Below, in pieces: positions 11,658-30,230 of a DNA stretch of 33,441 nt. The position numbers and the translations under genes are program-made. The notes below the pieces were generated by a model. The model was not told the origin of the DNA. It made no database searches and saw nothing but the letters and a program-made list of their open reading frames with translations. Source of the stretch: Candidatus Woesearchaeota archaeon. Lineage in GTDB: Archaea > Nanobdellota > Nanobdellia > Woesearchaeales > GW2011-AR4. The first letter of the stretch is position 1; every line of letters begins with the position of its first letter. The DNA lies in the NCBI GenBank assembly GCA_016185955.1, contig JACPMQ010000071.1, forward strand, positions 1-33,441, written 5' to 3'.

Positions 11658-11692
11658 AAAAATTCCACCAGTCTATGATTGGCGGAATTTTT
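11658..11692. repeat. F1 hairpin copy a (AAAAATTCCACCA / TGGCGGAATTTTT, loop GTCTATGAT)
   Basis: 12 of 13 arm positions pair. The hairpin has an A-run on the 5' side and a T-run on the 3' side, and starts 4 nt after the stop of the upstream gene. The sequence, loop included, closely resembles the copy at 20345-20385. Confidence 0.8.
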
Positions 11693-11743: not shown

Positions 11744-11853
11744 GGGCCTGTGGTCTAGTGTCCTTAAGGCTAGAAGCTATGACGTCGCCTCGACATTAAG
11801 CATCGGCTTTATCGCAACGGCGAAGTTCGAGTGTTCAAATCACTCCAGGCCCA
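11744..11853 (+). tRNA. tRNA gene, 110 nt, with about 36 nt of extra sequence (D region and anticodon region); isotype unresolved
   Basis: Acceptor stem GGGCCTG/CAGGCCC with discriminator A. T8, A14 and G15 are present. The T arm is GAGTG-TTCAAAT-CACTC preceded by variable loop AGTTC. The candidate anticodon stem TCGCC/GGCGA encloses 29 nt, and the candidate D stem GTC/GAC encloses 25 nt. Confidence 0.8.
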
Positions 11854-11856
11854 TTT

Positions 11857-11891
11857 AACACTAAAAATCTGCAAGGCAGATTTTTAGTGTT
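11857..11891. repeat. F2 hairpin copy a (AACACTAAAAATCTGC-AAG-GCAGATTTTTAGTGTT)
   Basis: Perfect 16-bp inverted repeat with a 3-nt loop, 4 nt after the tRNA 3' end. Confidence 0.85.
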
Positions 11892-11919
11892 TTGCAATAA
11901 CTATCCATTTTTAAATAAA

Positions 11920-14512: not shown

Positions 14513-14518
14513 GCTGTT

Positions 14519-14552
14519 AAATATTCCACCATTCGCGAATGGTGGAATTTTT
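14519..14552. repeat. F1 hairpin copy b (ATTCCACCATTCG|CGAATGGTGGAAT perfect palindrome)
   Basis: 14523-14548 is a perfect 26-nt palindrome, with further pairing outside one mismatch and A/T runs on both sides. It lies between convergent genes and overlaps the purH stop codon at 14551-14553. Confidence 0.85.
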
Positions 14553-16080
14553 AATGCCTGAAAAGCCTTATCCCTGTAAAGACCATTGCCATATTATGCT
14601 CATCAACAGCTTCTATCACTTCTTTGTCCCTTATCGAGCCGCCTGGCTGTATTATTGCAGTAATTCCTGCTTTTGCAGCCTCATCAATTCCATCTCTAAA
14701 AGGGAAGTATGCATCAGAAGCCATCACTGCATTTTTTGTCTTTTCTTTTGCTTTTGAAATGGCAATCTTAACTGCATCTACTCTTGACATCTGGCCGGCG
14801 CCAATGCCAACTGTTGCATTGCCTTTAGCCAAAACAATTGAATTGGACTTAACGTGCTTGTTGACCTTAAATGCAAACAGCATTGTTTTTATCTCTTCTT
14901 TTGTCGGCTTTCTTTTACCGACGATTTTTAAGTTTTTTTCCTTTATGTCGGGATATTCTCTTGTTTGCATTAATAATCCGCCAACAACCTTTTTTAGCTC
15001 ATATCCTTCTAAGCTTTTTGTTGCATTTCCGGTTTCCAAAAGCCTTATGTTCTTCTTTTTCTTTAAAATTAAAAGCGCATCTTTCTCAAATTTAGGGCAT
15101 GCAATTATTTCCACAAATAACGGGCTTATTACTTTTGTAATCTCAATATTGCATGGGCGATTTAACGCTATGACGCATCCAAATGCTGATAAAGGATCAG
15201 CTTCATAAGCCATTTTGAATGCATCTTCTATTTTATTCGCAATTGCTGCTCCACTGGGATTGGTATGCTTTACAATGACAGCAGCAGGCTCATTAAATTC
15301 CTTTACAAGCTCAAATGCATTATCAACATCAAGTATGTTATTGAATGAAAGCTGTTTTCCGTGCAATTGCTTTGCATTTCCAGCACAGCTCTCGTATACA
15401 AACTGCTCCTTATAGAAGGCAGCCTTTTGATGAGGGTTTTCTCCATACCTTAAATCCTGCATTTTCTTAAAAGTTAAGTTTAATATATCCGGAAATTCAT
15501 TTTTTCCAAAAGATTTGTTAAGATACTGATTTATTGTTGCGTCATATCTTGCGCTATGCGCAAAAGCCTTTAATGCCAGCTCATCCCTTAAGCTTTTGCT
15601 TATTCCTCCTTTTTTTAGCTCTTCTATAACGCGCTTATAGTCATCTGGCTCAATAATTACTGCAACAAACTCATGATTTTTTGCAGCAGCCCTTAGCATT
15701 GAAACTCCACCTATATCAATATTTTCAATTGCTTCTGCAAAACTGGCATTTTTTGCTACTGTTTCCTCGAACGGGTATAAATTAACAGCAACAATATCTA
15801 TAGCATCTATTTTATTGTTTTTTAATTCTTGGAGATGTTTTTTATTGTTCCTTAATGCTAAAATGCCTGCATAAATCTTCGGATGCAGGCTTTTTACTCT
15901 TCCATCTAACATTTCTTTGCTTTTTGTGTAATCAGAGACAAGAGTTATAGGAATCTTATTTTCTTTCAGCAGCTTTGCAGTTCCTCCTGTTGACAATATT
16001 TTTATTCCTAATTTATGCAATTCTTTTGCGAATTCTACTATACCTCTCTTATTTGAGACAGATATTAATGCGGTTTTCAT
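14551..16080 (-). CDS. purH: Bifunctional AICAR transformylase / IMP cyclohydrolase
   Basis: 509 aa. N-terminal MGS-like domain ALISVSNKRGIVEFAKELHKLGIKILSTGGTAKLL, and C-terminal AICARFT region ending FRH. Confidence 0.9.
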   Translation of the reverse strand: MKTALISVSNKRGIVEFAKELHKLGIKILSTGGTAKLLKENKIPITLVSDYTKSKEMLDGRVKSLHPKIYAGILALRNNKKHLQELKNNKIDAIDIVAVNLYPFEETVAKNASFAEAIENIDIGGVSMLRAAAKNHEFVAVIIEPDDYKRVIEELKKGGISKSLRDELALKAFAHSARYDATINQYLNKSFGKNEFPDILNLTFKKMQDLRYGENPHQKAAFYKEQFVYESCAGNAKQLHGKQLSFNNILDVDNAFELVKEFNEPAAVIVKHTNPSGAAIANKIEDAFKMAYEADPLSAFGCVIALNRPCNIEITKVISPLFVEIIACPKFEKDALLILKKKKNIRLLETGNATKSLEGYELKKVVGGLLMQTREYPDIKEKNLKIVGKRKPTKEEIKTMLFAFKVNKHVKSNSIVLAKGNATVGIGAGQMSRVDAVKIAISKAKEKTKNAVMASDAYFPFRDGIDEAAKAGITAIIQPGGSIRDKEVIEAVDEHNMAMVFTGIRLFRH

Positions 16081-16693: not shown

Positions 16694-16819
16694 AAAACCA
16701 CCGGTAAGAAAAAGAATATAGGGGTGTTTATAAATTTATGTTTTAAATAGGAAACATTTTACTATGCCTTTTTTGCATCTTTTTGAGAAGCTTTTTTCCG
16801 AATGGTTTATATATAAATC

Positions 16820-16859
16820 AAAACACTAAAAAATCTGCAAGACATATTTTTAGTGTTTT
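16820..16859. repeat. F2 hairpin copy b (degenerate inner stem)
   Basis: AAAACACTAAAAAATCTGCAAGACATATTTTTAGTGTTTT. The outer 13 bp pair and the inner part has diverged from copies a and c. Confidence 0.75.
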
Positions 16860-16873
16860 GCGGTGGAATTTTT
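16860..16873. repeat. F1 half-site (3' arm only, GCGGTGGAATTTTT)
   Basis: Matches the 3' arm of F1 copy f, but no 5' arm is present. It directly abuts F2 copy b. Confidence 0.6.
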
Positions 16874-18084: not shown

Positions 18085-18990
18085 ATGGTAGAATTTTTAC
18101 AAAAAAAATTAGGGCATGAAAAACTTATTCTTCTGAAAATTTTTTCTTACAGCTGTATGAATTGTCTGAGGTCTTTTGCATTTATAAGAAAAATAAATGA
18201 TAAGTACAGGAAATATGGATTAATAACAGTTATTGTACATCCTCCTGAATGGAAATTTGAAAAGAAAAAAAGCAATGTGCTTTGCGCATTAAAAAAGTAT
18301 AATATTAGGATTCCAATAATAATTGACCGAAATAAGAAAGTTATAGAAAAGCTTGGAATAGATTTCTGGCCAGCGCAGATATTGCTAAAAACGAATTTTC
18401 CGCCGCTCATAGAGCGGTGGAAATTTCGTTGTGGTAAAACAAAAGCCAAGCCGATGAAAGGCAAAAATGCGAAACCGATAAATGGCACATTTGTAAAAAT
18501 TGCCTATAAGCATATTGGAGAAGGAAATTACAAAGAGCTGGAAAATAAAATAATAAAGCTCTTAAAAATAAATCCCGATAAGGTATTTAAAAAAGTATTC
18601 AGAAAAGAGCCGAGCTACAGCAAATTTCCAAGCGTGTATTGCGGCAAAAGAAAAAATGGAAAAATAAAACTATTGGGGCAAAAAATAAAATTAAAATTTA
18701 ATGTTATTTATACTGATAAGAATTGGATTCAAAGGCAGGAATATATTAAATCAGTAGCTGATAAAGCTTCTTTAGAAATTGCCTCAAAAGGCAGGATAAT
18801 AAATTTTGTTGCAGAATCTCTGTTACAAAAAAAAATAAAAGTGGATGTGAAAGTAAATAATTATATAAAAACAATAATGGTGGGCAAGCCAAGGCTATAT
18901 ACGCTTATTGAATTAAAATCCAGTAAACTAAATAAGCTAAGGCTAATATCAGATCCTAATTTGGCAATATACTCATTTTCATTCCAATGA
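18085..18990 (+). CDS. Thioredoxin-fold (TlpA/redoxin-like) CxxC protein with C-terminal domain of unknown function
   Basis: LLKIFSYSCMNCLRS (CxxC after a beta strand) ... IPIIIDRNKKVIEKLGIDFWPAQILL ... VKIAYKHIGEG follows the redoxin topology. The roughly 160-aa C-terminal part is not recognisable. Confidence 0.5.
   Translation: MVEFLQKKLGHEKLILLKIFSYSCMNCLRSFAFIRKINDKYRKYGLITVIVHPPEWKFEKKKSNVLCALKKYNIRIPIIIDRNKKVIEKLGIDFWPAQILLKTNFPPLIERWKFRCGKTKAKPMKGKNAKPINGTFVKIAYKHIGEGNYKELENKIIKLLKINPDKVFKKVFRKEPSYSKFPSVYCGKRKNGKIKLLGQKIKLKFNVIYTDKNWIQRQEYIKSVADKASLEIASKGRIINFVAESLLQKKIKVDVKVNNYIKTIMVGKPRLYTLIELKSSKLNKLRLISDPNLAIYSFSFQ
18391..18429. repeat. F1 hairpin copy embedded in frame in the thioredoxin-fold CDS
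   Basis: ACGAATTTTCCGCCGCTC-ATA-GAGCGGTGGAAATTTCGT. 17 of 18 arm positions pair (one G-T wobble, one T-T mismatch). It starts at codon position 1 and spans exactly 13 codons (TNFPPLIERWKFR). The sequence is close to intergenic copies d and f. Confidence 0.75.
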
Positions 18991-20346: not shown

Positions 20347-20385
20347 AAACAAATTTTCCACCGTTCTATGAGCGGCAGAATTTTT
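20345..20385. repeat. F1 hairpin copy d (AAATTTTCCACCG-TTCTATGA-GCGGCAGAATTTTT)
   Basis: The stem is imperfect (about 9 of 13 positions pair), but the sequence including the TCTATGA loop is close to copy a. It lies between convergent genes and overlaps the last base of the ecfT stop. Confidence 0.7.
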
Positions 20386-20389
20386 AAGT

Positions 20390-20644
20390 TTACTCCTTAG
20401 AAGTTTTTTGCCCAAACAAAATTCCTGCGAGCACATTCAAAGCCCATGCCTGCAATACATTTATCTTGTATAGGCTGCCAAAAATAAAATTCCACAGCAA
20501 TTTCACTGGAAGGGCAAGCACTAATCCAACTATTCCGCTTATTAATATGACTAATGCTATTGTGTATGCCACTTCCAGCATTCTCCTCAATATCGGCACT
20601 TGCTCTAAAAATTTTATCATTGGGAAAATATAGGCAAATTTCAC
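20390..20644 (-). CDS. Small membrane protein (two predicted TM helices), unknown function
   Basis: 84-aa ORF with hydrophobic stretches IALVILISGIVGLVLALPV and AWALNVLAGILFG. GTG start, with an alternative ATG at residue 9. Confidence 0.45.
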   Translation of the reverse strand: MKFAYIFPMIKFLEQVPILRRMLEVAYTIALVILISGIVGLVLALPVKLLWNFIFGSLYKINVLQAWALNVLAGILFGQKTSKE

Positions 20645-20670
20645 GATTATTTAAATTTTTGTAAAAATAG

Positions 20671-20874
20671 TAACTGCTAACATAGATTTGTCCGAGAAGC
20701 AGGGTTTTTGCGAAAGTTTAATTTAGTGCTTGTGCGGAGCCTTATACTCCTCTCAACTTCGCAACATTTCATGTTGCTCAGGTCGCTTATCACAATCCTA
20801 CGGAGTTTTCTGAATTGGCAAATACGCACAAGCACCGACTTTCGCAAAAACCCTTTATGCTGTGTTAGCAGTTA
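20671..20874. repeat. Element A: 204-nt three-tier foldback (candidate structured RNA or MITE-like palindromic element)
   Basis: 20671-20682 pairs with 20863-20874 (12/12), 20702-20717 with 20838-20853 (16/16), and 20726-20736 with 20825-20835 (11/11). The 88-nt core contains the hairpin GCAACAT-TTC-ATGTTGC. Element B is a paralogue. Confidence 0.8.
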
Positions 20875-21586
20875 TGAAAATATCCCCTTCCATTATTTTT
20901 TTAATTTTGCCATTATCCAGCTTTAACAGTAAGTTGCAGTCTTTGTCTATGCCAATTGCTTTGCCTGCATATTCTCCTTCTAAAGTCTTTGCCTTTACCC
21001 ATTTGCCTATTGTATGCGAAGATTTTTTCCAGAGATTGGTGATTTTAAGGCAATCATGTTTTTCATAATAGGCATATAGCCGCTGAAATTCCCTTATTAT
21101 AAATTTTGCCGCTGTTTTAACTTCAAATTGCTTATTACATTCTATTTTTAATGATGTGGCTTTTTCCATAATAATTTTCGGAAATTTTTTCTGGTTTATG
21201 TTAAGCCCTATGCCAATGATTGCATAAGTTTTTTTGCCGTGCAAAATTTCTGTTAAAATGCCGCATACCTTCTTGCCATTTACTAAAACATCATTGGGCC
21301 ACTTTACCATTCCATTTAATCCTGACAAGGATTTTATTGATTTTGAAACAGCTAAAGAAGCGATTAGTGTGAGGTATTTAATTTTGTCGGAGTTTTTTTC
21401 TTTGAGGAGAATTGTCATGTATAATCCTCCTGAACTAGAGCTCCATTTTCTGTTAAAGCGGCCTCTGCCTTTTGTCTGCCTTTCAGCTATAACTACTAAG
21501 TTAAAATTACCCTTTTCAGCAAAAGTTTTGGCCTTATCATTAGTGGAAGAAACAGTATTGTAATTATAAAGCTGAAAGTTTGGCAT
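20855..21586 (-). CDS. birA: Biotin--[acetyl-CoA-carboxylase] ligase (catalytic and C-terminal domains, no N-terminal HTH)
   Basis: ERQTKGRGRFNRKWSS (GRGRxGR biotin-binding loop), KWPNDVLVNGKKVCGIL and GIGLNIN. At 243 aa it is a class I ligase without a repressor domain. Confidence 0.88.
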   Translation of the reverse strand: MPNFQLYNYNTVSSTNDKAKTFAEKGNFNLVVIAERQTKGRGRFNRKWSSSSGGLYMTILLKEKNSDKIKYLTLIASLAVSKSIKSLSGLNGMVKWPNDVLVNGKKVCGILTEILHGKKTYAIIGIGLNINQKKFPKIIMEKATSLKIECNKQFEVKTAAKFIIREFQRLYAYYEKHDCLKITNLWKKSSHTIGKWVKAKTLEGEYAGKAIGIDKDCNLLLKLDNGKIKKIMEGDIFITANTA

Positions 21587-23499
21587 TAAGACTCACTGTT
21601 TTGTATTGCTTCCTGCCTTGCTGCCATTACCCACGGGCTTACCTTATTGTTGCTATTGTTGCTATAAGACTTTTTTTTCTCAAGATATTTTGAAACTGCG
21701 GTTGTAACAAGAAGTATTTTCTGCTCACTTGCCAGCTCTTTTTTTTGCTCCGTATACTCATTTACATATTCAAGTATATTATTCTTCTGTATGAAGGATG
21801 TTGACACATGTCCTCTGATGAAATTTTTGTTGTTTAAAACTGCCAAATGGAAAGGTATTGTTGTCTTGATTCCTGCAATAGTGTACTCTTTTAAGGCTCC
21901 TATCATTTTTGTGATTGCTTCCTGCCTCGTGTTTCCATGGCATATAAGCAAAGATAGCAATGAATCGTAATGTGGCAGCACTTTATAGCCTTGATAGCAT
22001 ATGCTGTTTACCCTTATTCCTGGTCCTCCAGGCGCAAGATAATTAGTAATTGCGCCCATTGACGGATAAAAGTTGTTTGATGGGTCTTCTCCATTTATTC
22101 TGCATTCAATTGCCCAGCCATCCAGCTTTATGTCTTCTTGCTTAAACGCAAGCTTTGCGCCAGAAGCAAGCTTAATCTGCTCTTTAACAAGGTCTACTCC
22201 AGTTACCATCTCTGTTACGCCATGCTCAACTTGAATTCTTGTGTTCATCTCTATAAAATAAAAATTCTTGTTTTTATCAAGTAAAAACTCTACTGTGCCT
22301 GCGCCTTCATATTTTGCTGCTGATGCCACTTTAAGGGCAGTTTCTCCCATTTTTGCCCTTAGTTCATCACTTAATGCAGGGCTTGGAGATTCTTCTACAA
22401 GCTTTTGGTGCTTTCTCTGTATGCTGCAATCCCTTTCCCCTAAATGTATAACATTGCCGTACCTATCAGCTAATATTTGAAATTCTATATGGCGTGGCTC
22501 CTCTATATACTTCTCCATGTATAGGGATTTATCGTTAAAAGACATATAAGATTCTGCTTCAGCATTTTCATAAGCCCTTTCCAGCTTTTCCATTACTCTT
22601 ACGATGCGCATTCCTTTGCCGCCGCCGCCAGCAGCTGCTTTTATTATCACTGGCAGCCCAATTTTCTTAGCAACGTTAAATGCGTGCTTTTTATTTTTTA
22701 ATGGGGTTGTTGTGCCTTCTATAACCTTAACTCCTGCCTTTGATGCTGTTTTTTTTGCCATAACCTTATCTCCCAAAAGCCTAATTGTTTTTGAAGATGG
22801 TCCTATAAATTTAATGCCATTCTTCTCGCATAATCTTGCAAACTTGTAATTCTCTGCTAAAAAGCCATAACCAGGATGTATTGCATCCACCTTTACCCTT
22901 TTTGCAATCTTTATTATCTTATTAGTGTCAAGATAGCTTATCGCGGAGCCTATGCAATATTTTTTATCAGCAAATTTTATTGAGAGGGTGTTTTTGTCAG
23001 GAGTTGAGTAAACTAATACTGTTTCTATTCCAAGCTCTCGGCATGCCCTAATAACCCTCAATGCTATTTCTCCGCGATTTGCTATCAAAACCCTGTTAAA
23101 CTTTTTCTCCTTTGAGAGAAAGGTGTAATCCTTTTCACTAATGCTTAATCCCTTGGCTACCATGTCAAGAAAACTCTGTGAAGACTTGCTAGCCACTATT
23201 TTTTTGATTTCCCTTTCACCCATAGCAGGAACCTTTTTTATTATATTTGAGGTTATTACATCCCCTATCTCAGCTAAATCCGTTCTTTCGACAATCTTTT
23301 TGCTCTTGGCAATTGAAACAAAATTATTTTTAAAAAATTCCTCTACTTCATTATAAACCAATGGCGCTGCCTTTTTTATGCCGCTGAACAGCTTCTTAGC
23401 ATAATTATAAGAATAGCCAACAGGAATCAGGCTCTTATTTAGGGAAGATAACAGCATATTCCTGACATCCTGAGCTATACTTTTGTTTTTCTTTGCCAT
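21586..23499 (-). CDS. accC: Biotin carboxylase (AccC / PycA-type ATP-grasp) with a roughly 130-aa N-terminal and roughly 60-aa C-terminal extension
   Basis: The core starts at RVLIANRGEIALRVIRACRELGIETV, followed by GYGFLAEN, IIKAAAGGGGKGMRIV, EEPRHIEFQILADRYGNVIHLGERDCSIQRKHQKLVEE and FIEMNTRIQVEH. Residues 1-130 and the C-terminal tail have no recognisable motif. Confidence 0.9.
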   Translation of the reverse strand: MAKKNKSIAQDVRNMLLSSLNKSLIPVGYSYNYAKKLFSGIKKAAPLVYNEVEEFFKNNFVSIAKSKKIVERTDLAEIGDVITSNIIKKVPAMGEREIKKIVASKSSQSFLDMVAKGLSISEKDYTFLSKEKKFNRVLIANRGEIALRVIRACRELGIETVLVYSTPDKNTLSIKFADKKYCIGSAISYLDTNKIIKIAKRVKVDAIHPGYGFLAENYKFARLCEKNGIKFIGPSSKTIRLLGDKVMAKKTASKAGVKVIEGTTTPLKNKKHAFNVAKKIGLPVIIKAAAGGGGKGMRIVRVMEKLERAYENAEAESYMSFNDKSLYMEKYIEEPRHIEFQILADRYGNVIHLGERDCSIQRKHQKLVEESPSPALSDELRAKMGETALKVASAAKYEGAGTVEFLLDKNKNFYFIEMNTRIQVEHGVTEMVTGVDLVKEQIKLASGAKLAFKQEDIKLDGWAIECRINGEDPSNNFYPSMGAITNYLAPGGPGIRVNSICYQGYKVLPHYDSLLSLLICHGNTRQEAITKMIGALKEYTIAGIKTTIPFHLAVLNNKNFIRGHVSTSFIQKNNILEYVNEYTEQKKELASEQKILLVTTAVSKYLEKKKSYSNNSNNKVSPWVMAARQEAIQNSES

Positions 23500-23580: not shown

Positions 23581-23617
23581 AACACTAAAAAATCTGCAAA
23601 GCAGATTTTTTAGTGTT
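23581..23617. repeat. F2 hairpin copy c (AACACTAAAAAATCTGC-AAA-GCAGATTTTTTAGTGTT)
   Basis: Perfect 17-bp inverted repeat that overlaps the carboxyltransferase stop codon (23616-23618). Confidence 0.85.
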
Positions 23618-25124
23618 ATAATGGCATATTCCCATGCTTCTTTGCAGGCATTCTTTCCCTTTTTGATAGAAGAGTTTCCAAACAGCTAATTAAGGTTTTC
23701 CTTGTGTCCTTTGGCTCTATTATTATATCCACCTTACCATACTTGGCTGCTGCATAAGGGTTTAGAAATTTTTCATTATATTCTTTAATCCTTTCATTTT
23801 TTATTTTGGCTCCATTATTCCCTTTAAGCTCTTTTCTGAATATGAGATTAATTGCTTGCTCTGCGCCCATAACAGCTATTTCTGCATCAGGCCATGCAAT
23901 TACCGCATCAAAGCCCATTTCCTTTGAAACCATTGCAATGTAAGCTCCCCCATAAGCTTTCCTCATAACAAGGCTTATTTTAGGGACAACAGCTTCGGAA
24001 TATGCATAAAGGACTTTTGCTCCATGCCTTATTATGCCATTATGCTCTTGCTCAACTCCCGGCAAGTAGCCGGTAACATCAACAAGATTTATCAAAGGTA
24101 TGTTAAAGCAATCGCAAAATCTTACAAACCTTGCTATTTTGTCAGAGCTGTTTATATCAAGGCAGCCAGCCAATATTTTTGGCTGATTGGCTACAATGCC
24201 AACAACATTATTGTTTAGCCTTGCAAAGCCAACAACAGCGTTAGGAGCATATAATGGATGTATCTCAAAAAATGTGTTTTTATCCACAATTTCCTCTATG
24301 ACTTCCTTTACATCATAGCTTTTTTTTGTGTCTTTAGGGATTATGTCCTTTAGCTTGTTATTCAGCCTTTCTGCATTATCATGCGCATTCAAAAAAGGCG
24401 GACTTTCCAAATTATTTTGCGGCAGATAGCTCAGTAAAAATCTAATTAGCTCAACGCATTCCTTTTCGTCTTCTGCAACAAAATGCGCAACGCCGCTTTT
24501 TTGGTTATGAGCTAAAGTCCCGCCAAGAGACTCAAAGTCTATGCTTTCACCTGTTATTGTTTTTATAATATCCGGGCCGGTTATAAACATATAGCTGACT
24601 TTTTTTGTCATAAAAATGAAATCGGTTAAAGCCGGGCTGTAAACAGCAATGCCTGCGCAAGGTCCCAGTATAGCTGATATTTGCGGAATTACTCCAGACG
24701 CTAATGTGTTATTTTTGAATATTAAGCCACCGGAATCAAGGCTGTTAATGCCTTCTTGGATTCTAGCGCCTCCGGAATCCAGCAAACCGACAATTGGGCA
24801 GCCTGTTTTTAGGGCATGCTCCATTATTGATGATATTTTTTTGTTGTGCATTTCCCCCATAGAGCCACCGATAAAGGCAAAGTCTTGGGCATATACACAT
24901 ACTTGCCTTCCATTAATTTTTGCATAGCCCGTTATTACTCCGTCTCGCGGCATTTTTTTTTCCTGCAATCCATAATCATGGCTTCTAAGCTCCATAAACT
25001 CATTTACCTCAACAAAAGAGCCTTTGTCTACTAAAAGCTCTATCCTTTCTTTTGCAGTTAATTTTCCCTTTTCACGCTGCATTTTGATTGCTTCTTTGTC
25101 TTTTTTAGGCGTATTTTTTGTCAT
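23616..25124 (-). CDS. Acyl-CoA carboxylase carboxyltransferase subunit (propionyl-CoA carboxylase beta / methylmalonyl-CoA decarboxylase alpha family)
   Basis: 502 aa with two crotonase-like halves. Motifs LTAKERIELLVDKGSF.E, VYAQDFAFIGGSMGEMH, LLDSGGARIQEG, RKAYGGAYIAM and AWPDAEIAVMGAEQA. Confidence 0.9.
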   Translation of the reverse strand: MTKNTPKKDKEAIKMQREKGKLTAKERIELLVDKGSFVEVNEFMELRSHDYGLQEKKMPRDGVITGYAKINGRQVCVYAQDFAFIGGSMGEMHNKKISSIMEHALKTGCPIVGLLDSGGARIQEGINSLDSGGLIFKNNTLASGVIPQISAILGPCAGIAVYSPALTDFIFMTKKVSYMFITGPDIIKTITGESIDFESLGGTLAHNQKSGVAHFVAEDEKECVELIRFLLSYLPQNNLESPPFLNAHDNAERLNNKLKDIIPKDTKKSYDVKEVIEEIVDKNTFFEIHPLYAPNAVVGFARLNNNVVGIVANQPKILAGCLDINSSDKIARFVRFCDCFNIPLINLVDVTGYLPGVEQEHNGIIRHGAKVLYAYSEAVVPKISLVMRKAYGGAYIAMVSKEMGFDAVIAWPDAEIAVMGAEQAINLIFRKELKGNNGAKIKNERIKEYNEKFLNPYAAAKYGKVDIIIEPKDTRKTLISCLETLLSKRERMPAKKHGNMPL

Positions 25125-25206: not shown

Positions 25207-26400
25207 ATGGAAAAAAGGCTTCTTGTTGTCGGAATTGACCCTGGGACTACATTAGGCTATGCTGCGCTTGATTTGAACAAAGAGGTTATGGCATTAAAAT
25301 CCTCAAAAAACTTTGGATTGAATGAATTGCTTTTGGACATAACAAAAATAGGCAAAGTGATTGCAGTAGGCACAGACAAAGCAAAAATACCTCATTTAGT
25401 CCAGCTTTTTTCAGCCAAAACGGGGGCAAAAATCTTTCATCCAAACGATGATTTGAAGGCAGAGGAAAAGAAAAAATTGACGGAAAGCTTTGAAACTGCA
25501 AATTGGCACCAAAATGACGCATTAGCAAGCTCTCTTTTTGCATTTAACAACATAAAAGCCACTCTTGACAAGATTGAGGGCTTTGTTGAGGATAATAACA
25601 AAAATTCAATCAAGGAAAAGATAACTGAACTTGTGCTAGCTAAAGGGCTAAGCATAAAGGAAGCTGCCTCGCTTATAGAAAACAAGGATTCTGAGGAAAC
25701 TGAAATAATAAAGAAGGTAGTTGAAGAAAATAAGATGACCCAAAATGATTTTATGAGGCTTTACCGCATAATAAAAAGGCATGAAAGAGAAAATTATCTC
25801 CTTAAAAGGCAAAATAACAATCTTAAAAACTATGTTAAAGCTCTGGAAAAAAGGCTTAATTACGCAAAAAAAGAGCATAGTGAAGGTATTAGCAAGAAAG
25901 ATGGCAGAAATATCAAAGAAATTTTGCTGAAAGAAAAAGGCATTAATTTTCTTCAAAACAGATTAAATATGTCAGAAGAAGATGTAAAAAAATCCGCTTT
26001 AGACATTAAAAAGCTGAATTGCATGCTCTCAAAATGCAATAGCTCTTTTATATTAAAGAAATTAGACAACCTCGGCAGATTAGAGTTTGAAAGGAAAAAA
26101 GAATTGCTTAACATAGAAAAAGATGATATTCTTCTTGTAGAAAACCCAAGCATAATAAGCGAAAATGTCATGGCATTTTTAAAAGACAAAGTCAGCATTA
26201 TACTTACAAAAAACCCTATAAGCGGCAAAATAAGGGAAAAATATTCCTTTTCGTTTGTAGATTGTAAAAAAATAAGGATGGAAGATGGTGATTTTTTTGC
26301 TATTGCGCCAAAAAAAGAAATTCAGGAGCTGTTAAAAGATAGCAATGTCCTAAAAATGCTAATAGAAGATTATAAAAAGCACAGAGAAGGTAACTGCTAA
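25207..26400 (+). CDS. DUF460 / COG2433-like protein: N-terminal RuvC/YqgF (RNase H fold) nuclease-like domain plus coiled coil
   Basis: LLVVGIDPGTTLGYAALDL...VIAVGTDK resembles the first RuvC/RNase-H acidic motif (GIDPG). The middle is heptad-rich (LLKRQNNNLKNYVKALEKRLNYAKKEH). The last four codons lie in element B. Confidence 0.6.
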   Translation: MEKRLLVVGIDPGTTLGYAALDLNKEVMALKSSKNFGLNELLLDITKIGKVIAVGTDKAKIPHLVQLFSAKTGAKIFHPNDDLKAEEKKKLTESFETANWHQNDALASSLFAFNNIKATLDKIEGFVEDNNKNSIKEKITELVLAKGLSIKEAASLIENKDSEETEIIKKVVEENKMTQNDFMRLYRIIKRHERENYLLKRQNNNLKNYVKALEKRLNYAKKEHSEGISKKDGRNIKEILLKEKGINFLQNRLNMSEEDVKKSALDIKKLNCMLSKCNSSFILKKLDNLGRLEFERKKELLNIEKDDILLVENPSIISENVMAFLKDKVSIILTKNPISGKIREKYSFSFVDCKKIRMEDGDFFAIAPKKEIQELLKDSNVLKMLIEDYKKHREGNC

Positions 26401-26654
26401 TAGAACTATTATCCGAAAAGATGGGTTTTTGCGAATTCTTATTCGTGCTTGTGCGGAGCCTTAACTACGAAAATTCCACCGCTTTTGCGGTGGAATTTTC
26501 GCAATGACAAAAACGATAAACCACGCATTTGGCATCGTTTTGCCTTAACCACGGCTTGTCACTATCAAATTGCGCACAAGCACTGAATTCGCAAAACCCA
26601 TCTTAAGGCTTTGTCATGGCACAGACGGACTTGTCGGACAAAGCTCTGTTAGCA
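26391..26654. repeat. Element B: 264-nt multi-tier foldback paralogous to element A, carrying an internal F1 hairpin
   Basis: 26418-26438 pairs with 26585-26604 (20 bp plus one bulged T). 26445-26455 pairs with 26573-26583 (11/11, identical sequence to A). The outer pairing is 26395-26407 with 26643-26654. Internal hairpins are 26468-26501 (15 bp) and AAAACGAT/ATCGTTTT. Confidence 0.8.
26468..26501. repeat. F1 hairpin copy f (CGAAAATTCCACCGC-TTTT-GCGGTGGAATTTTCG), nested in element B
   Basis: Perfect 15-bp stem with a 4-nt loop. Confidence 0.85.
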
Positions 26655-26672
26655 TATACTTTCCATGTAAAC

Positions 26673-26682
26673 CTTTATAAAT
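26673..26682 (+). promoter_or_regulatory. TATA-like box (CTTTATAAAT) upstream of the MoxR-like gene
   Basis: Centred about 34 nt upstream of the ATG at 26712 and downstream of element B. Position-based guess. Confidence 0.35.
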
Positions 26683-26711
26683 TTCTATGGCTTACATACC
26701 TATTTTTAAAA

Positions 26712-27644
26712 ATGATAAGCCAAGAATTAAGTGATATATTATTGGGCAGGAATGAGCCTTTTGATGAAATAATCGGGCAAGATCCAGTAAAATTAGCTGT
26801 AAAGTCTGCATTATTGTCCAATAGACACATAGTATTAGTTGGCGCTCCGGGAATTGGAAAAACTACGCTGGCAAAAAATATAGCAAAGCTCATCGGCAAA
26901 AAAACTCCTTTTGTCAGAATTCAGGGCAGTCCAGACTTAACCGTAGAAGATTTATTAGGAGATATTGATCCAATTAAGGCTTTGAAATATGGGCCTTTAA
27001 GCATTGAAGCATTCACAAAAGGCAAAATCTTTAAAGCTGATAAGGGAGTATTGTTCTTTGATGAATTAAATAGATGCCCTGAAAAGGTGCAGAACGCTCT
27101 TCTGCAGGTTTTAGAGGAAAAAAAGGCTACTATAGCAAGCTATGACGTTGATTTTGATGTTGATTTTGTGTTCATAGCAACAATGAACCCAGAAGATTCT
27201 TCAACGGAAAAGCTTTCAGATGTTCTTTTAGACAGGTTTGATTTAATATACATGAATTATCCTGAAACAATAGAAATAGAAAAGCAAATAGTATTAAAAA
27301 AAGGCAAAAGGCTTAATGACGCAAAAGTAAGTGACAATCTTTTGGAAATTATGATATATTTTATAAGATTGCTGCGGGAAGACAAAAACCTTGAAAAGAA
27401 GCCTTCTGTGAGGGCTTCCATAGGATTGTATGAGAGGTCGCAGTCAAACGCAATTTTAAATGGCAGAAAAACAGCAACTCTTGAAGACTTAAAGTGCGTT
27501 GTTGTTTCAGTTCTCGCGCATAGAATAAGGCTAAAGCCATCTGTGAAATATCTCCAAGCTGCAGAAACTTATATAAGCAGCCAGTTTGAAAAAAATATTT
27601 TGGATAATGATGCATTAGAAGAAAAAACAGGTGATTTACTTTGA
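26712..27644 (+). CDS. MoxR/ChlI-type AAA+ ATPase
   Basis: Walker A LVGAPGIGKTTLAK, Walker B VLFFDELNR and sensor region FIATMNPED...LLDRFD. I chose the ATG at 26712 (MISQELSD...), because the ORF-track start at 26616 lies inside element B. Confidence 0.85.
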   Translation: MISQELSDILLGRNEPFDEIIGQDPVKLAVKSALLSNRHIVLVGAPGIGKTTLAKNIAKLIGKKTPFVRIQGSPDLTVEDLLGDIDPIKALKYGPLSIEAFTKGKIFKADKGVLFFDELNRCPEKVQNALLQVLEEKKATIASYDVDFDVDFVFIATMNPEDSSTEKLSDVLLDRFDLIYMNYPETIEIEKQIVLKKGKRLNDAKVSDNLLEIMIYFIRLLREDKNLEKKPSVRASIGLYERSQSNAILNGRKTATLEDLKCVVVSVLAHRIRLKPSVKYLQAAETYISSQFEKNILDNDALEEKTGDLL

Positions 27645-29586: not shown

Positions 29587-30195
29587 ATGAAACTTTTAGC
29601 ATTCACGGATTTGCACTTGTCATCTAATGCGTTCAAGAAAATCAAATCAAAGGCAAAAAGCGAAAATCCCGAATTATTGGTATGCGCAGGGGATATTTCT
29701 ATTTTCGAGCAGGGCATCGATTTTATGCTCAATAAGCTGAATAAGCTCAAGAAAAAAATATTGATGATAAACGGCAACCATGAGAATGCGAGCATACTTA
29801 AAAAATTGTGCAGAAAATACAAGAATATAATTTTTATCCACAAAAAATATTATAAGCATAACAATCATGTTTTTTTAGGTTATGGCGGCAGCGGATTTTC
29901 ATTAATAGAGCCGGATTTTTACAAAACAGCAAAATATTTTAAAAAAGTAATAAATAGAAACAGGAATAAAAAAATAATTTTGGTGACGCATGCTCCGCCT
30001 TACAAGACAAAACTTGATTTAATAGTGGGGAGCCATTGCGGCAACAAAACTCTAAGAAGGTTTATAGAGAAAAATAAAATTGATTTGAATATATGCGGGC
30101 ATTTGCACGAGAATTTTGGAAAAAGGGACTATATAAAAAAAACTTTTATTATAAATCCGGGTCCTTATGGGAAGATGATAAAAAATTTGCAATGA
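29587..30195 (+). CDS. Calcineurin-like metallophosphoesterase
   Basis: Motifs in order: FTDLH, AGDIS, NGNHEN, VTHAPP and GHLHE. Confidence 0.8.
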   Translation: MKLLAFTDLHLSSNAFKKIKSKAKSENPELLVCAGDISIFEQGIDFMLNKLNKLKKKILMINGNHENASILKKLCRKYKNIIFIHKKYYKHNNHVFLGYGGSGFSLIEPDFYKTAKYFKKVINRNRNKKIILVTHAPPYKTKLDLIVGSHCGNKTLRRFIEKNKIDLNICGHLHENFGKRDYIKKTFIINPGPYGKMIKNLQ

Positions 30196-30230
30196 CACTA
30201 ATCACACTAATCGCAGATTTTTTAGTGTCC
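30194..30230. repeat. F2 hairpin copy d (degenerate 5' arm with CACTAATC duplication)
   Basis: GACACTAATCACACTAATC-GCAGATTTTTTAGTGTC. The 3' arm is intact, and the 5' arm keeps only GACACTAA plus TCGC. It lies between convergent genes and touches both stop codons. Confidence 0.7.

Follow-up and report, generated by a model that had tools for sequence, protein, structure and literature searches.

What is the 204-bp foldback that sits at a gene boundary in the chromosome of a Woesearchaeote, and how did it come to be there? The DNA analysed here, a stretch of 33,441 nucleotides which we call the window, is an archaeal chromosome fragment that carries a ribosomal protein operon, SecY, purine genes, biotin genes and a DUF460 gene. 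The foldback, element A (20671-20874), belongs to the minus-strand side of this fragment. It lies between birA, which encodes the biotin-protein ligase (20855-21586, minus strand; Pfam BPL_LplA_LipB and BPL_C), and a conserved small membrane ORF of 76 aa that follows it downstream (20390-20620, minus strand). An earlier inspection of the letters, the sequence-only reading, had named three candidates for it: a novel structured RNA, a MITE-like element or a DNA-level recombination site.

The three nested helices that had been announced for A are all present, and some of them extend further than was claimed. The outer helix, in which 20671-20682 is the exact reverse complement of 20863-20874, reaches 15 nt with one G.T pair (TAACTGCTAACATAG, 20671-20685, with 20860-20874). 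The middle helix, said to pair at 16 of 16 positions between 20702-20717 and 20838-20853, is indeed perfect and actually extends to 17 of 17 (AGGGTTTTTGCGAAAGT, 20701-20717, with 20838-20854), and the inner helix pairs at all of its 11 positions (GTGCTTGTGCG, 20726-20736, with 20825-20835). They enclose the expected 88-nt core (20737-20824) with its 7-bp hairpin at 20761-20777, and the suggested ACTCC/GGAGT pairing (20746-50 with 20802-06) is part of the minimum-energy fold of the plus strand. The arms are not strictly symmetrical: the left-arm segment TTTGTCCGAGAAG (20687-20699) has no partner in the right arm, owing to a deletion, the segment being found in both arms of the second copy described below, and the bulge TTAATTTA (20718-20725) belongs to the left arm only. 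The foldback is thus best described as two terminal inverted repeats (TIRs) of about 65 nt with indels, its ends being set by the outer inverted repeat and by the matches to an arm profile at 20671-20743 (+) and 20874-20819 (-). The predicted RNA fold of the plus strand has an energy of -80.3 kcal/mol, compared with -47.5 +/- 4.5 for 200 dinucleotide shuffles, none of which folds as well (z = -7.2); for the minus strand, z = -6.6. The foldback is genuine and well outside what chance produces.

A second copy, element B (26391-26658, 268 bp), is found 5.5 kb away, in the same plus orientation and at an unrelated site, on the plus-strand side of the fragment between the DUF460 gene (25207-26400, plus strand) and a gene for a MoxR-type AAA ATPase that lies downstream of it (26712-27644, plus strand). 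Its left TIR (26391-26455) is made of an outer segment at 26391-26407, TATTATCCGAAAAG at 26407-26420, a middle segment at 26418-26438 and an inner one at 26445-26455. Its right TIR (26573-26658) is an inverted copy of the left arm with an insertion, and it comprises the inner segment (26573-26583), the middle segment (26585-26604), a 26-nt arm-specific insertion (26605-26630) and the stretch 26631-26658. The predicted fold of B, at -123.9 kcal/mol (z = -12.5), is stronger than that of A. Both copies follow the same plan, TAACTGCTAAyA..TTGTCCGAnAAG..GGGTTTTTGCGAA..GTGCTTGTGCG, with about 65 bp on each side and a core of 88 or 117 nt; the TTGTCCGAnAAG segment is missing from the right arm of A. 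The left arms are about 80% identical, by eye, across some 73 nt, with the blocks TAACTGCTAAyA, TTrTCCGAnAAG, GGGTTTTTGCGAA and GTGCTTGTGCGGAGCCTTA in common, and the left strand of the inner helix is identical in A and B. At the place of the bulge of A, B has TTATTC, so this asymmetry of the arms is a feature of the family. The core of B (26456-26572, 117 nt), in which a perfect hairpin is found at 26469-26500, is unrelated to that of A, the shared stretch being the first 8 nt only (GAGCCTTA). A profile built from the four arms and run over the whole window matches these four arms at E = 1e-14 to 1e-19, and no further match was obtained in the window. Since both copies align on the plus strand, A standing in a minus-strand operon and B in a plus-strand operon, their orientations relative to host transcription are opposite.

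Both copies cut into the gene upstream of them. The birA gene takes its TAA stop (20855-20857), its five final codons (TANTA) and all but one base of the Ile codon ahead of them from A, the minus-strand reading of the right outer segment giving the new BirA tail (I)TANTA. BirA homologues end in ...EGDIF[IVT]V* or ...EADIFVI*, and the protein of the window ends in EGDIFI+TANTA*, the tail being element sequence. The best of these homologues are 57-66% identical and the named ones are labelled Woesearchaeota or Nanoarchaeota; one homologue, P0053, has a longer tail, which reaches its stop within the TATA box of the following gene. The statement that A fills the spacer after birA is therefore right as to its position next to the gene and wrong as to its being spacer only, since the 3' end of birA runs into it. 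In the case of the DUF460 gene, the last two codons and the stop are the first ten bases of B, whose left end supplies (G)NC and TAA (26398-26400). The protein of the window ends in KKHRE+GNC*, and in its homologues another 6-9 residues come after the common ...KK/KR-x-R-[EK] motif (...KKSREYLSKSL, ...KNKRKIEISQVIP). Exact-protein look-ups with this DUF460 protein and with the 310-aa MoxR protein matched no record.

On the downstream side, the two copies end at a similar distance from a promoter. The TATA box of the small ORF, TTTAAATA (20650-20657, minus strand), lies 12-13 nt beyond the left end of A, and that of the MoxR gene, TTTATAAA (26674-26681), lies 15 nt beyond the right end of B, so that 12-15 nt separate each element from the next TATA box. 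A mechanical reading opens the MoxR ORF at an ATG inside B (26616), its first 32 codons being element and spacer; the true start is likely to be the ATG at 26712, about 30 nt after the TATA box. Judged from these junctions, A and B both look like insertions.

The loci of relatives point in the same direction. The order accC-birA-small ORF is kept in three relatives, with BirA proteins 59-63% identical, which do not carry the element; ORFs of 75-77 aa follow birA in relatives and have the same AAAAnnTTTAAAWA promoter motif. The spacer between birA and the small ORF is 35 nt in the relative L017 and 120 nt in L014, without similarity to A, and a further relative, L015, has an opposite-strand gene between the two. 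These relatives are distant (53-63% protein identity) and the exact empty site is not alignable, which sets the scope of the comparison. The gene packing is extreme: in L017 the stop of birA is embedded in the TATA box of the gene that follows (L017 4340-4370), and the reconstructed pre-insertion ORFs of birA and DUF460 would likewise stop inside the downstream TATA boxes (window 20645-20660 and 26668-26684). Next to birA, the ORF of an accC-like biotin carboxylase (21586-23499, minus strand; 637 aa) begins with some 130 aa ahead of its first Pfam domain; its counterparts in relatives measure 633-642 aa, with one of 521 aa.

MITEs are described as small, multicopy elements of AT-rich intergenic sites that have TIRs and flanking duplications, lack a transposase and give transcripts folding into stable stem-loops (PMC10969869, PMC11602168). 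A and B measure 204 and 268 bp, within the usual range of about 50-800 bp, and are non-coding, their internal ORFs not exceeding 72 aa. The perfect TIR segments of A are 12 (15 with one G.T), 17 and 11 bp long, the length required being at least 10-15 bp. Both copies are intergenic in position, and presence and absence at orthologous sites are seen in the birA spacers that lack A and in the element-derived C-termini at both copies. As to the flanking duplication, which in MITEs measures 2-10 bp, the one possible candidate is the self-complementary TA found at each end of both copies (TA/ACTGC...GCAGT/TA in A, TA/ACTGC...GCATA/TA in B), and no direct repeat longer than TA flanks A or B. Being self-complementary, this TA may belong to the inverted repeat itself. 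If a TA duplication is assumed for B, the pre-insertion DUF460 ORF would run into the MoxR frame, and if the whole element is removed, a stop is restored inside the TATA box; the reconstruction of the reading frame thus appears to disfavour a TA duplication in B. In the case of A, a TA duplication and no duplication both give a stop in the TATA box. An imperfect repeat around A, TGTAAAAAT and TGAAAATAT (7/9), was considered as a duplication and rejected, being offset from the left end and close to what chance gives in AT-rich DNA. The direct repeats that flank MITEs are known to decay over time (PMC10969869).

We assign a probability of about 0.6 to the conclusion that A and B belong to a new family of MITE-like, non-autonomous transposons, both copies residing in the chromosome of an uncultured DPANN archaeon, the Woesearchaeote. 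This reading is favoured because the second copy has the same arms around an unrelated core, because the orthologous locus in relatives is without the element, because the C-termini of both upstream host proteins are rewritten and because the copies are oppositely oriented relative to host transcription. Among the three candidates of the sequence-only reading it is therefore the MITE-like element that comes out ahead; what is left to the structured RNA is the covariation of the arms, and a recombination site of the attC type does not fit. Several observations count against the MITE-like reading: no target-site duplication is unambiguous; only two copies are seen, within 33 kb; the window has no transposase and the collections searched gave no autonomous partner; no further copy was found in GTDB, JGI, IMG/VR, plasmids or phages; TIRs of 65 bp are long for a prokaryotic MITE; and five compensated arm pairs, described below, reveal a constraint beyond neutral decay.

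Known prokaryotic MITEs, such as Coxiella QMITE2, the Neisseria Correia elements and the Sulfolobus SM elements (PMC10969869, PMC11602168), are like A and B in being small, non-coding and intergenic, in having TIRs around a core and gene-boundary sites, and in giving transcripts predicted as very stable stem-loops. QMITE2 has TIRs of 23-29 bp, a core of 113-145 bp and a reported value of -113, similar to element B. A and B differ from these elements by their TIRs of about 65 bp, the arms making up most of the element, by the lack of a demonstrable direct-repeat duplication and of a known partner IS, by the unrelated cores of the two copies, and by several positions that differ in both arms together and are still complementary. 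With the MITEs derived from IS630/Tc1-mariner, which duplicate a TA target, they share the TA that bounds both sides of each copy, and IS630 occurs in archaea (PMC13343696); unlike in those MITEs, the frame reconstruction of B argues against a TA duplication, and no IS630 transposase is tied to the ends.

The lineage itself offers a further comparison. The Woesearchaeote contig L017 (CDDJCE010000092.1, GCA_974486045.1) carries, upstream of accC, a MITE of about 180 bp at 1507-1685 (1496-1695 with its flanks), with perfect 16-bp TIRs (GGTGTGTCCCAAATCT), internal hairpins and a flanking 10-bp direct repeat, CGTTGAAAGG. It resembles A and B in its lineage, its intergenic position, its perfect terminal inverted repeats and its internal hairpins, and differs from them in its unrelated sequence, in the shortness of its TIRs and in the clear direct repeat, which is missing around A and B. 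About 105 MITEs per Mb were counted in one woesearchaeal genome in a published census (PMC11602168). On account of this census and of the textbook MITE of L017, the kind of element is already known in Woesearchaeota; the sequence family of A and B itself turned up in none of the collections that we searched.

In the mechanism that we propose for the MITE-like elements, a transposase encoded elsewhere in the genome would bind both ends and move the element in trans. In so compact a genome, insertion would be tolerated at few bases only, those separating the end of a gene from the next TATA box; copies that landed there would survive, and the stop codons at the termini would close the clipped host ORF soon after entry. 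Indeed, the termini contain a stop codon in every frame. TAACTGCTAAC gives TAA at once and the second frame reads AAC TGC TAA; the third frame at the right end of A reads ACT GCT AAC ACA GCA TAA, five codons and then a stop, and through a left arm it is closed after about 18 codons. It is for this reason that the clipped host ORFs are short in both observed cases. A T5 tract (GGGTTTTTGCG) is present in each arm and would be reached early from either direction. We infer the transposition in trans and the type of the transposase, and a hairpin formed by read-through, together with the T5 tract, could as a side effect influence the termination or the stability of transcripts.

Mobile elements appear to persist even in a very compact DPANN genome by landing in the 10-20 bases that separate a stop codon from the next promoter, at the price of altered C-terminal residues in housekeeping proteins (BirA and the nuclease-like DUF460 protein). 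For annotation, the BirA tail, the DUF460 tail and the over-long MoxR ORF from 26616 are artefacts of the insertions, and three gene ends are corrected. If the family is abundant, it could serve as a marker for strain typing and for finding the archaeal transposase responsible. The case also calls for caution in general, since an extreme fold and compensated pairs can stem from the paired ends of a transposon and not from a functional RNA.

The search for relatives of the elements was wide. The internal ORFs of A and B have no homologues, and a 682-aa concatenate of the six-frame translations of the arms, compared with 5.8 billion proteins, gave none at E <= 10. The pattern GTTTTGCGAAN{3,15}GTGCTTGTGCG yielded no credible copy in 185,579 GTDB representative genomes and in JGI metagenomes; its three matches in GTDB and five in JGI involve a single arm, fall on contigs of 49-60% G+C without surrounding similarity and were judged to be due to chance. 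Three patterns run against IMG/VR gave chance matches or none, and blastn of the elements against plasmids and phages gave no match. No transposase or integrase gene is present in the 33-kb window, and no autonomous partner with the ends of A and B was found in the genome, metagenome, viral, plasmid and phage collections searched.

The comparison of A with B also bears on what keeps the arms paired. In a manual table of 44 homologous arm pairs, 33 are identical, 5 have changed on both sides with pairing kept, 1 has changed on one side to G.T, and 5 are broken or bulged. This table replaced an RNAalifold consensus of A and B, which was discarded because MAFFT had misaligned the right arms owing to the 26-nt insertion of B. 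Four of the five compensated pairs belong to the middle helix, where A-T has become T-A and, further on, AGT/ACT has become TTC/GAA, and where no pair is broken between A and B. The arms are constrained to stay complementary, and simple neutral decay of the copies would not give that. Such covariation does not distinguish an RNA helix from DNA ends, because one protein binds both ends of a transposon, which change together, and it is undiagnostic also because an element mobilised as a hairpin would behave likewise.

Could the folded single strand itself be the mobile form, as in REPINs or in derivatives of IS200/IS605? A Y1 (HUH) transposase would then recognise the fold and leave no target-site duplication. 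Selection for the fold would explain the compensated changes in arms that are kept complementary. No clear duplication is seen, the reconstruction of B favouring none, and the position of A and B at gene ends recalls the REP and REPIN elements mobilised by RAYT, which are also extragenic gene-end hairpins with complementary halves and no target duplication. REP/RAYT systems have been described in bacteria. The ends of IS200/IS605 consist of subterminal hairpins on one strand and not of full-length terminal inverted repeats, and are in this respect unlike those of A and B. The arms of A and B, at 65 nt, are far longer than REP units and have no conserved internal palindrome of their own, whether REP-like or other, nor a GTAG/CGTC head, and no gene for a Y1 transposase or a RAYT is present in the window. 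We hold this form of mobility to be unlikely, although the rank of IS200/IS605 as the most abundant and most widespread IS family in archaea (PMC13343696) counts in its favour. REP units are palindromes of 20-40 nt with a conserved tetranucleotide head (PMC3733652). REPINs combine such units in inverted pairs.

In a further reading, to which we give little credence, the foldback would be more than debris of a transposon: it would depend on its hairpin, with selection on the folded RNA or single-stranded DNA preserving the complementarity of the arms, and the very compact host genome would have put it to use as a module at gene boundaries, placed after a stop codon and ahead of the next TATA box. 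Such a module would end both the upstream ORF and its transcript, by means of the all-frame stops, the T5 tract and the large hairpin, and would leave the downstream promoter intact.

A structured RNA, cis-acting or encoded as a gene of its own, appears improbable. The long hairpin, produced by read-through or from its own promoter, would have a role between closely packed genes, whether in termination, insulation, stabilisation or processing, or it would serve as a scaffold for a small RNA located in the core. The very stable predicted folds of A and B and the five compensated changes, with a middle helix free of broken pairs, speak for it, but paired transposon ends also covary. The T5 tract of each arm can be cited as well, oligo-T tracts being archaeal termination signals, and so can a TATA-like TTTAATTTA read in the left arm of A, although this bulge is not kept in B, and the terminator-like hairpin in the core of B, whose family is known at other gene ends. 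The pattern of conservation is the reverse of what is typical of a functional RNA: the stems are kept in sequence, and not in pairing alone, and the unpaired core is not kept. Furthermore, the wobbles and mismatches favour neither strand consistently, A and B are opposite relative to host transcription, the orthologous loci of relatives lack the element, and the C-termini of two host proteins are damaged.

The databases of known RNAs agree with the earlier remark that A shows no conserved motif of tRNA, RNase P, SRP or C/D-box RNA. Rfam at gathering thresholds, applied to the whole window, gave no match to A, to B or to any family, and permissive E-value scans of A and B gave at best miRNA and snoRNA noise of 10-20 bits, the thresholds being 37-245. 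The lack of an Rfam match counts against an RNA of a known family, and alone it does not imply a novel RNA. ARAGORN found no tRNA in A or B. A C/D-box sRNA was rejected on inspection, no correctly spaced C (RUGAUGA) and D (CUGA) boxes, which go with guides of about 12 nt, being present on either strand. An RNA excised in the archaeal manner at a BHB motif, which is defined by two 3-nt bulges separated by a 4-bp helix, was rejected too, as the internal loops of A are strongly asymmetric (about 15/5 and 7-8/1-2 nt) and those of B are similar.

There is next to no chance that the foldbacks are attC-type sites of an integron, in which a folded single strand forms the recombination site at the 3' end of each gene cassette. 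Like attC sites they are imperfect palindromes with a variable centre, they begin on the upstream gene's stop codon or overlap it, and their ends have GCTAAC / GTTAGC, loosely like RYYYAAC / GTTRRRY. But at 204-268 bp they are too long for attC sites of roughly 55-141 bp, GTTAGCA is off GTTRRRY at two positions and TGCTAAC off RYYYAAC at the first, and the window has no integrase, with which cassette arrays are associated. Their neighbours, moreover, are housekeeping genes, the order of which is conserved in element-less relatives. A composite transposon, in which A and B as direct copies would bracket birA, accC, the carboxyltransferase gene and the DUF460 gene, was rejected because the enclosed genes are housekeeping genes and accC-birA is syntenic in relatives without the element.

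Other repeats mark gene ends in the same window. A palindromic repeat of about 35 nt, ACACTAAAAAATCTGCAAnnCAGATTTTTAGTGT, occurs at gene ends in both orientations (11857-11895, 16817-16861, 23581-23622 and 30195-30228), one copy directly behind a tRNA gene and another right where the carboxyltransferase gene ends; it may represent a REP-like element or else a bidirectional terminator that is conserved. Another family of hairpins, AAAATTCCACC-loop-GGTGGAATTTT, is found mostly at gene ends (11660-11690, 14517-14554, 16860-16872, 18398-18430, 20348-20380 and, in B, 26469-26500), with a TCTATGA loop in three of its copies, and the motif AAATTCCACC occurs 12 times in the window with at most one mismatch, compared with 3.5 occurrences expected. 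The presence of a copy of the AAAATTCCACC/GGTGGAATTTT hairpin inside the core of B suggests either that B took up a terminator-like hairpin of the host or that such a hairpin inserted into B.

The tRNA gene just mentioned (11744-11853, plus strand) carries two insertions, presumably introns, which enlarge the D-loop region by about 16 nt and the anticodon-loop region by about 22 nt. It scored 40.9 bits in the permissive Rfam scan (threshold 29, E = 1e-7) and was missed by ARAGORN and by the gathering scan of Rfam with default filters.

Finally, the Logan contigs of run SRR12113424 that reach an element, three in number and independent of one another, all stop inside it: L004 (equal to 20845-21896) stops exactly 30 nt inside the right end of A, that is at k-1 for k = 31, L019 (19727-20677) stops inside A, and L020 (24845-26452) inside B. 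Such breaks may reflect a repeat edge in the de Bruijn graph and hint at more copies; they are only suggestive, since Logan contigs also break inside ordinary genes every 1-1.6 kb or so. L020 represents a variant strain: over 1.6 kb it differs from the window by seven SNPs only, and its B arm is identical. These SNPs all fall within 90 nt of the DUF460 gene (window 25903-25992) and change five amino acids, a cluster which looks like a short recombination tract between co-existing strains.
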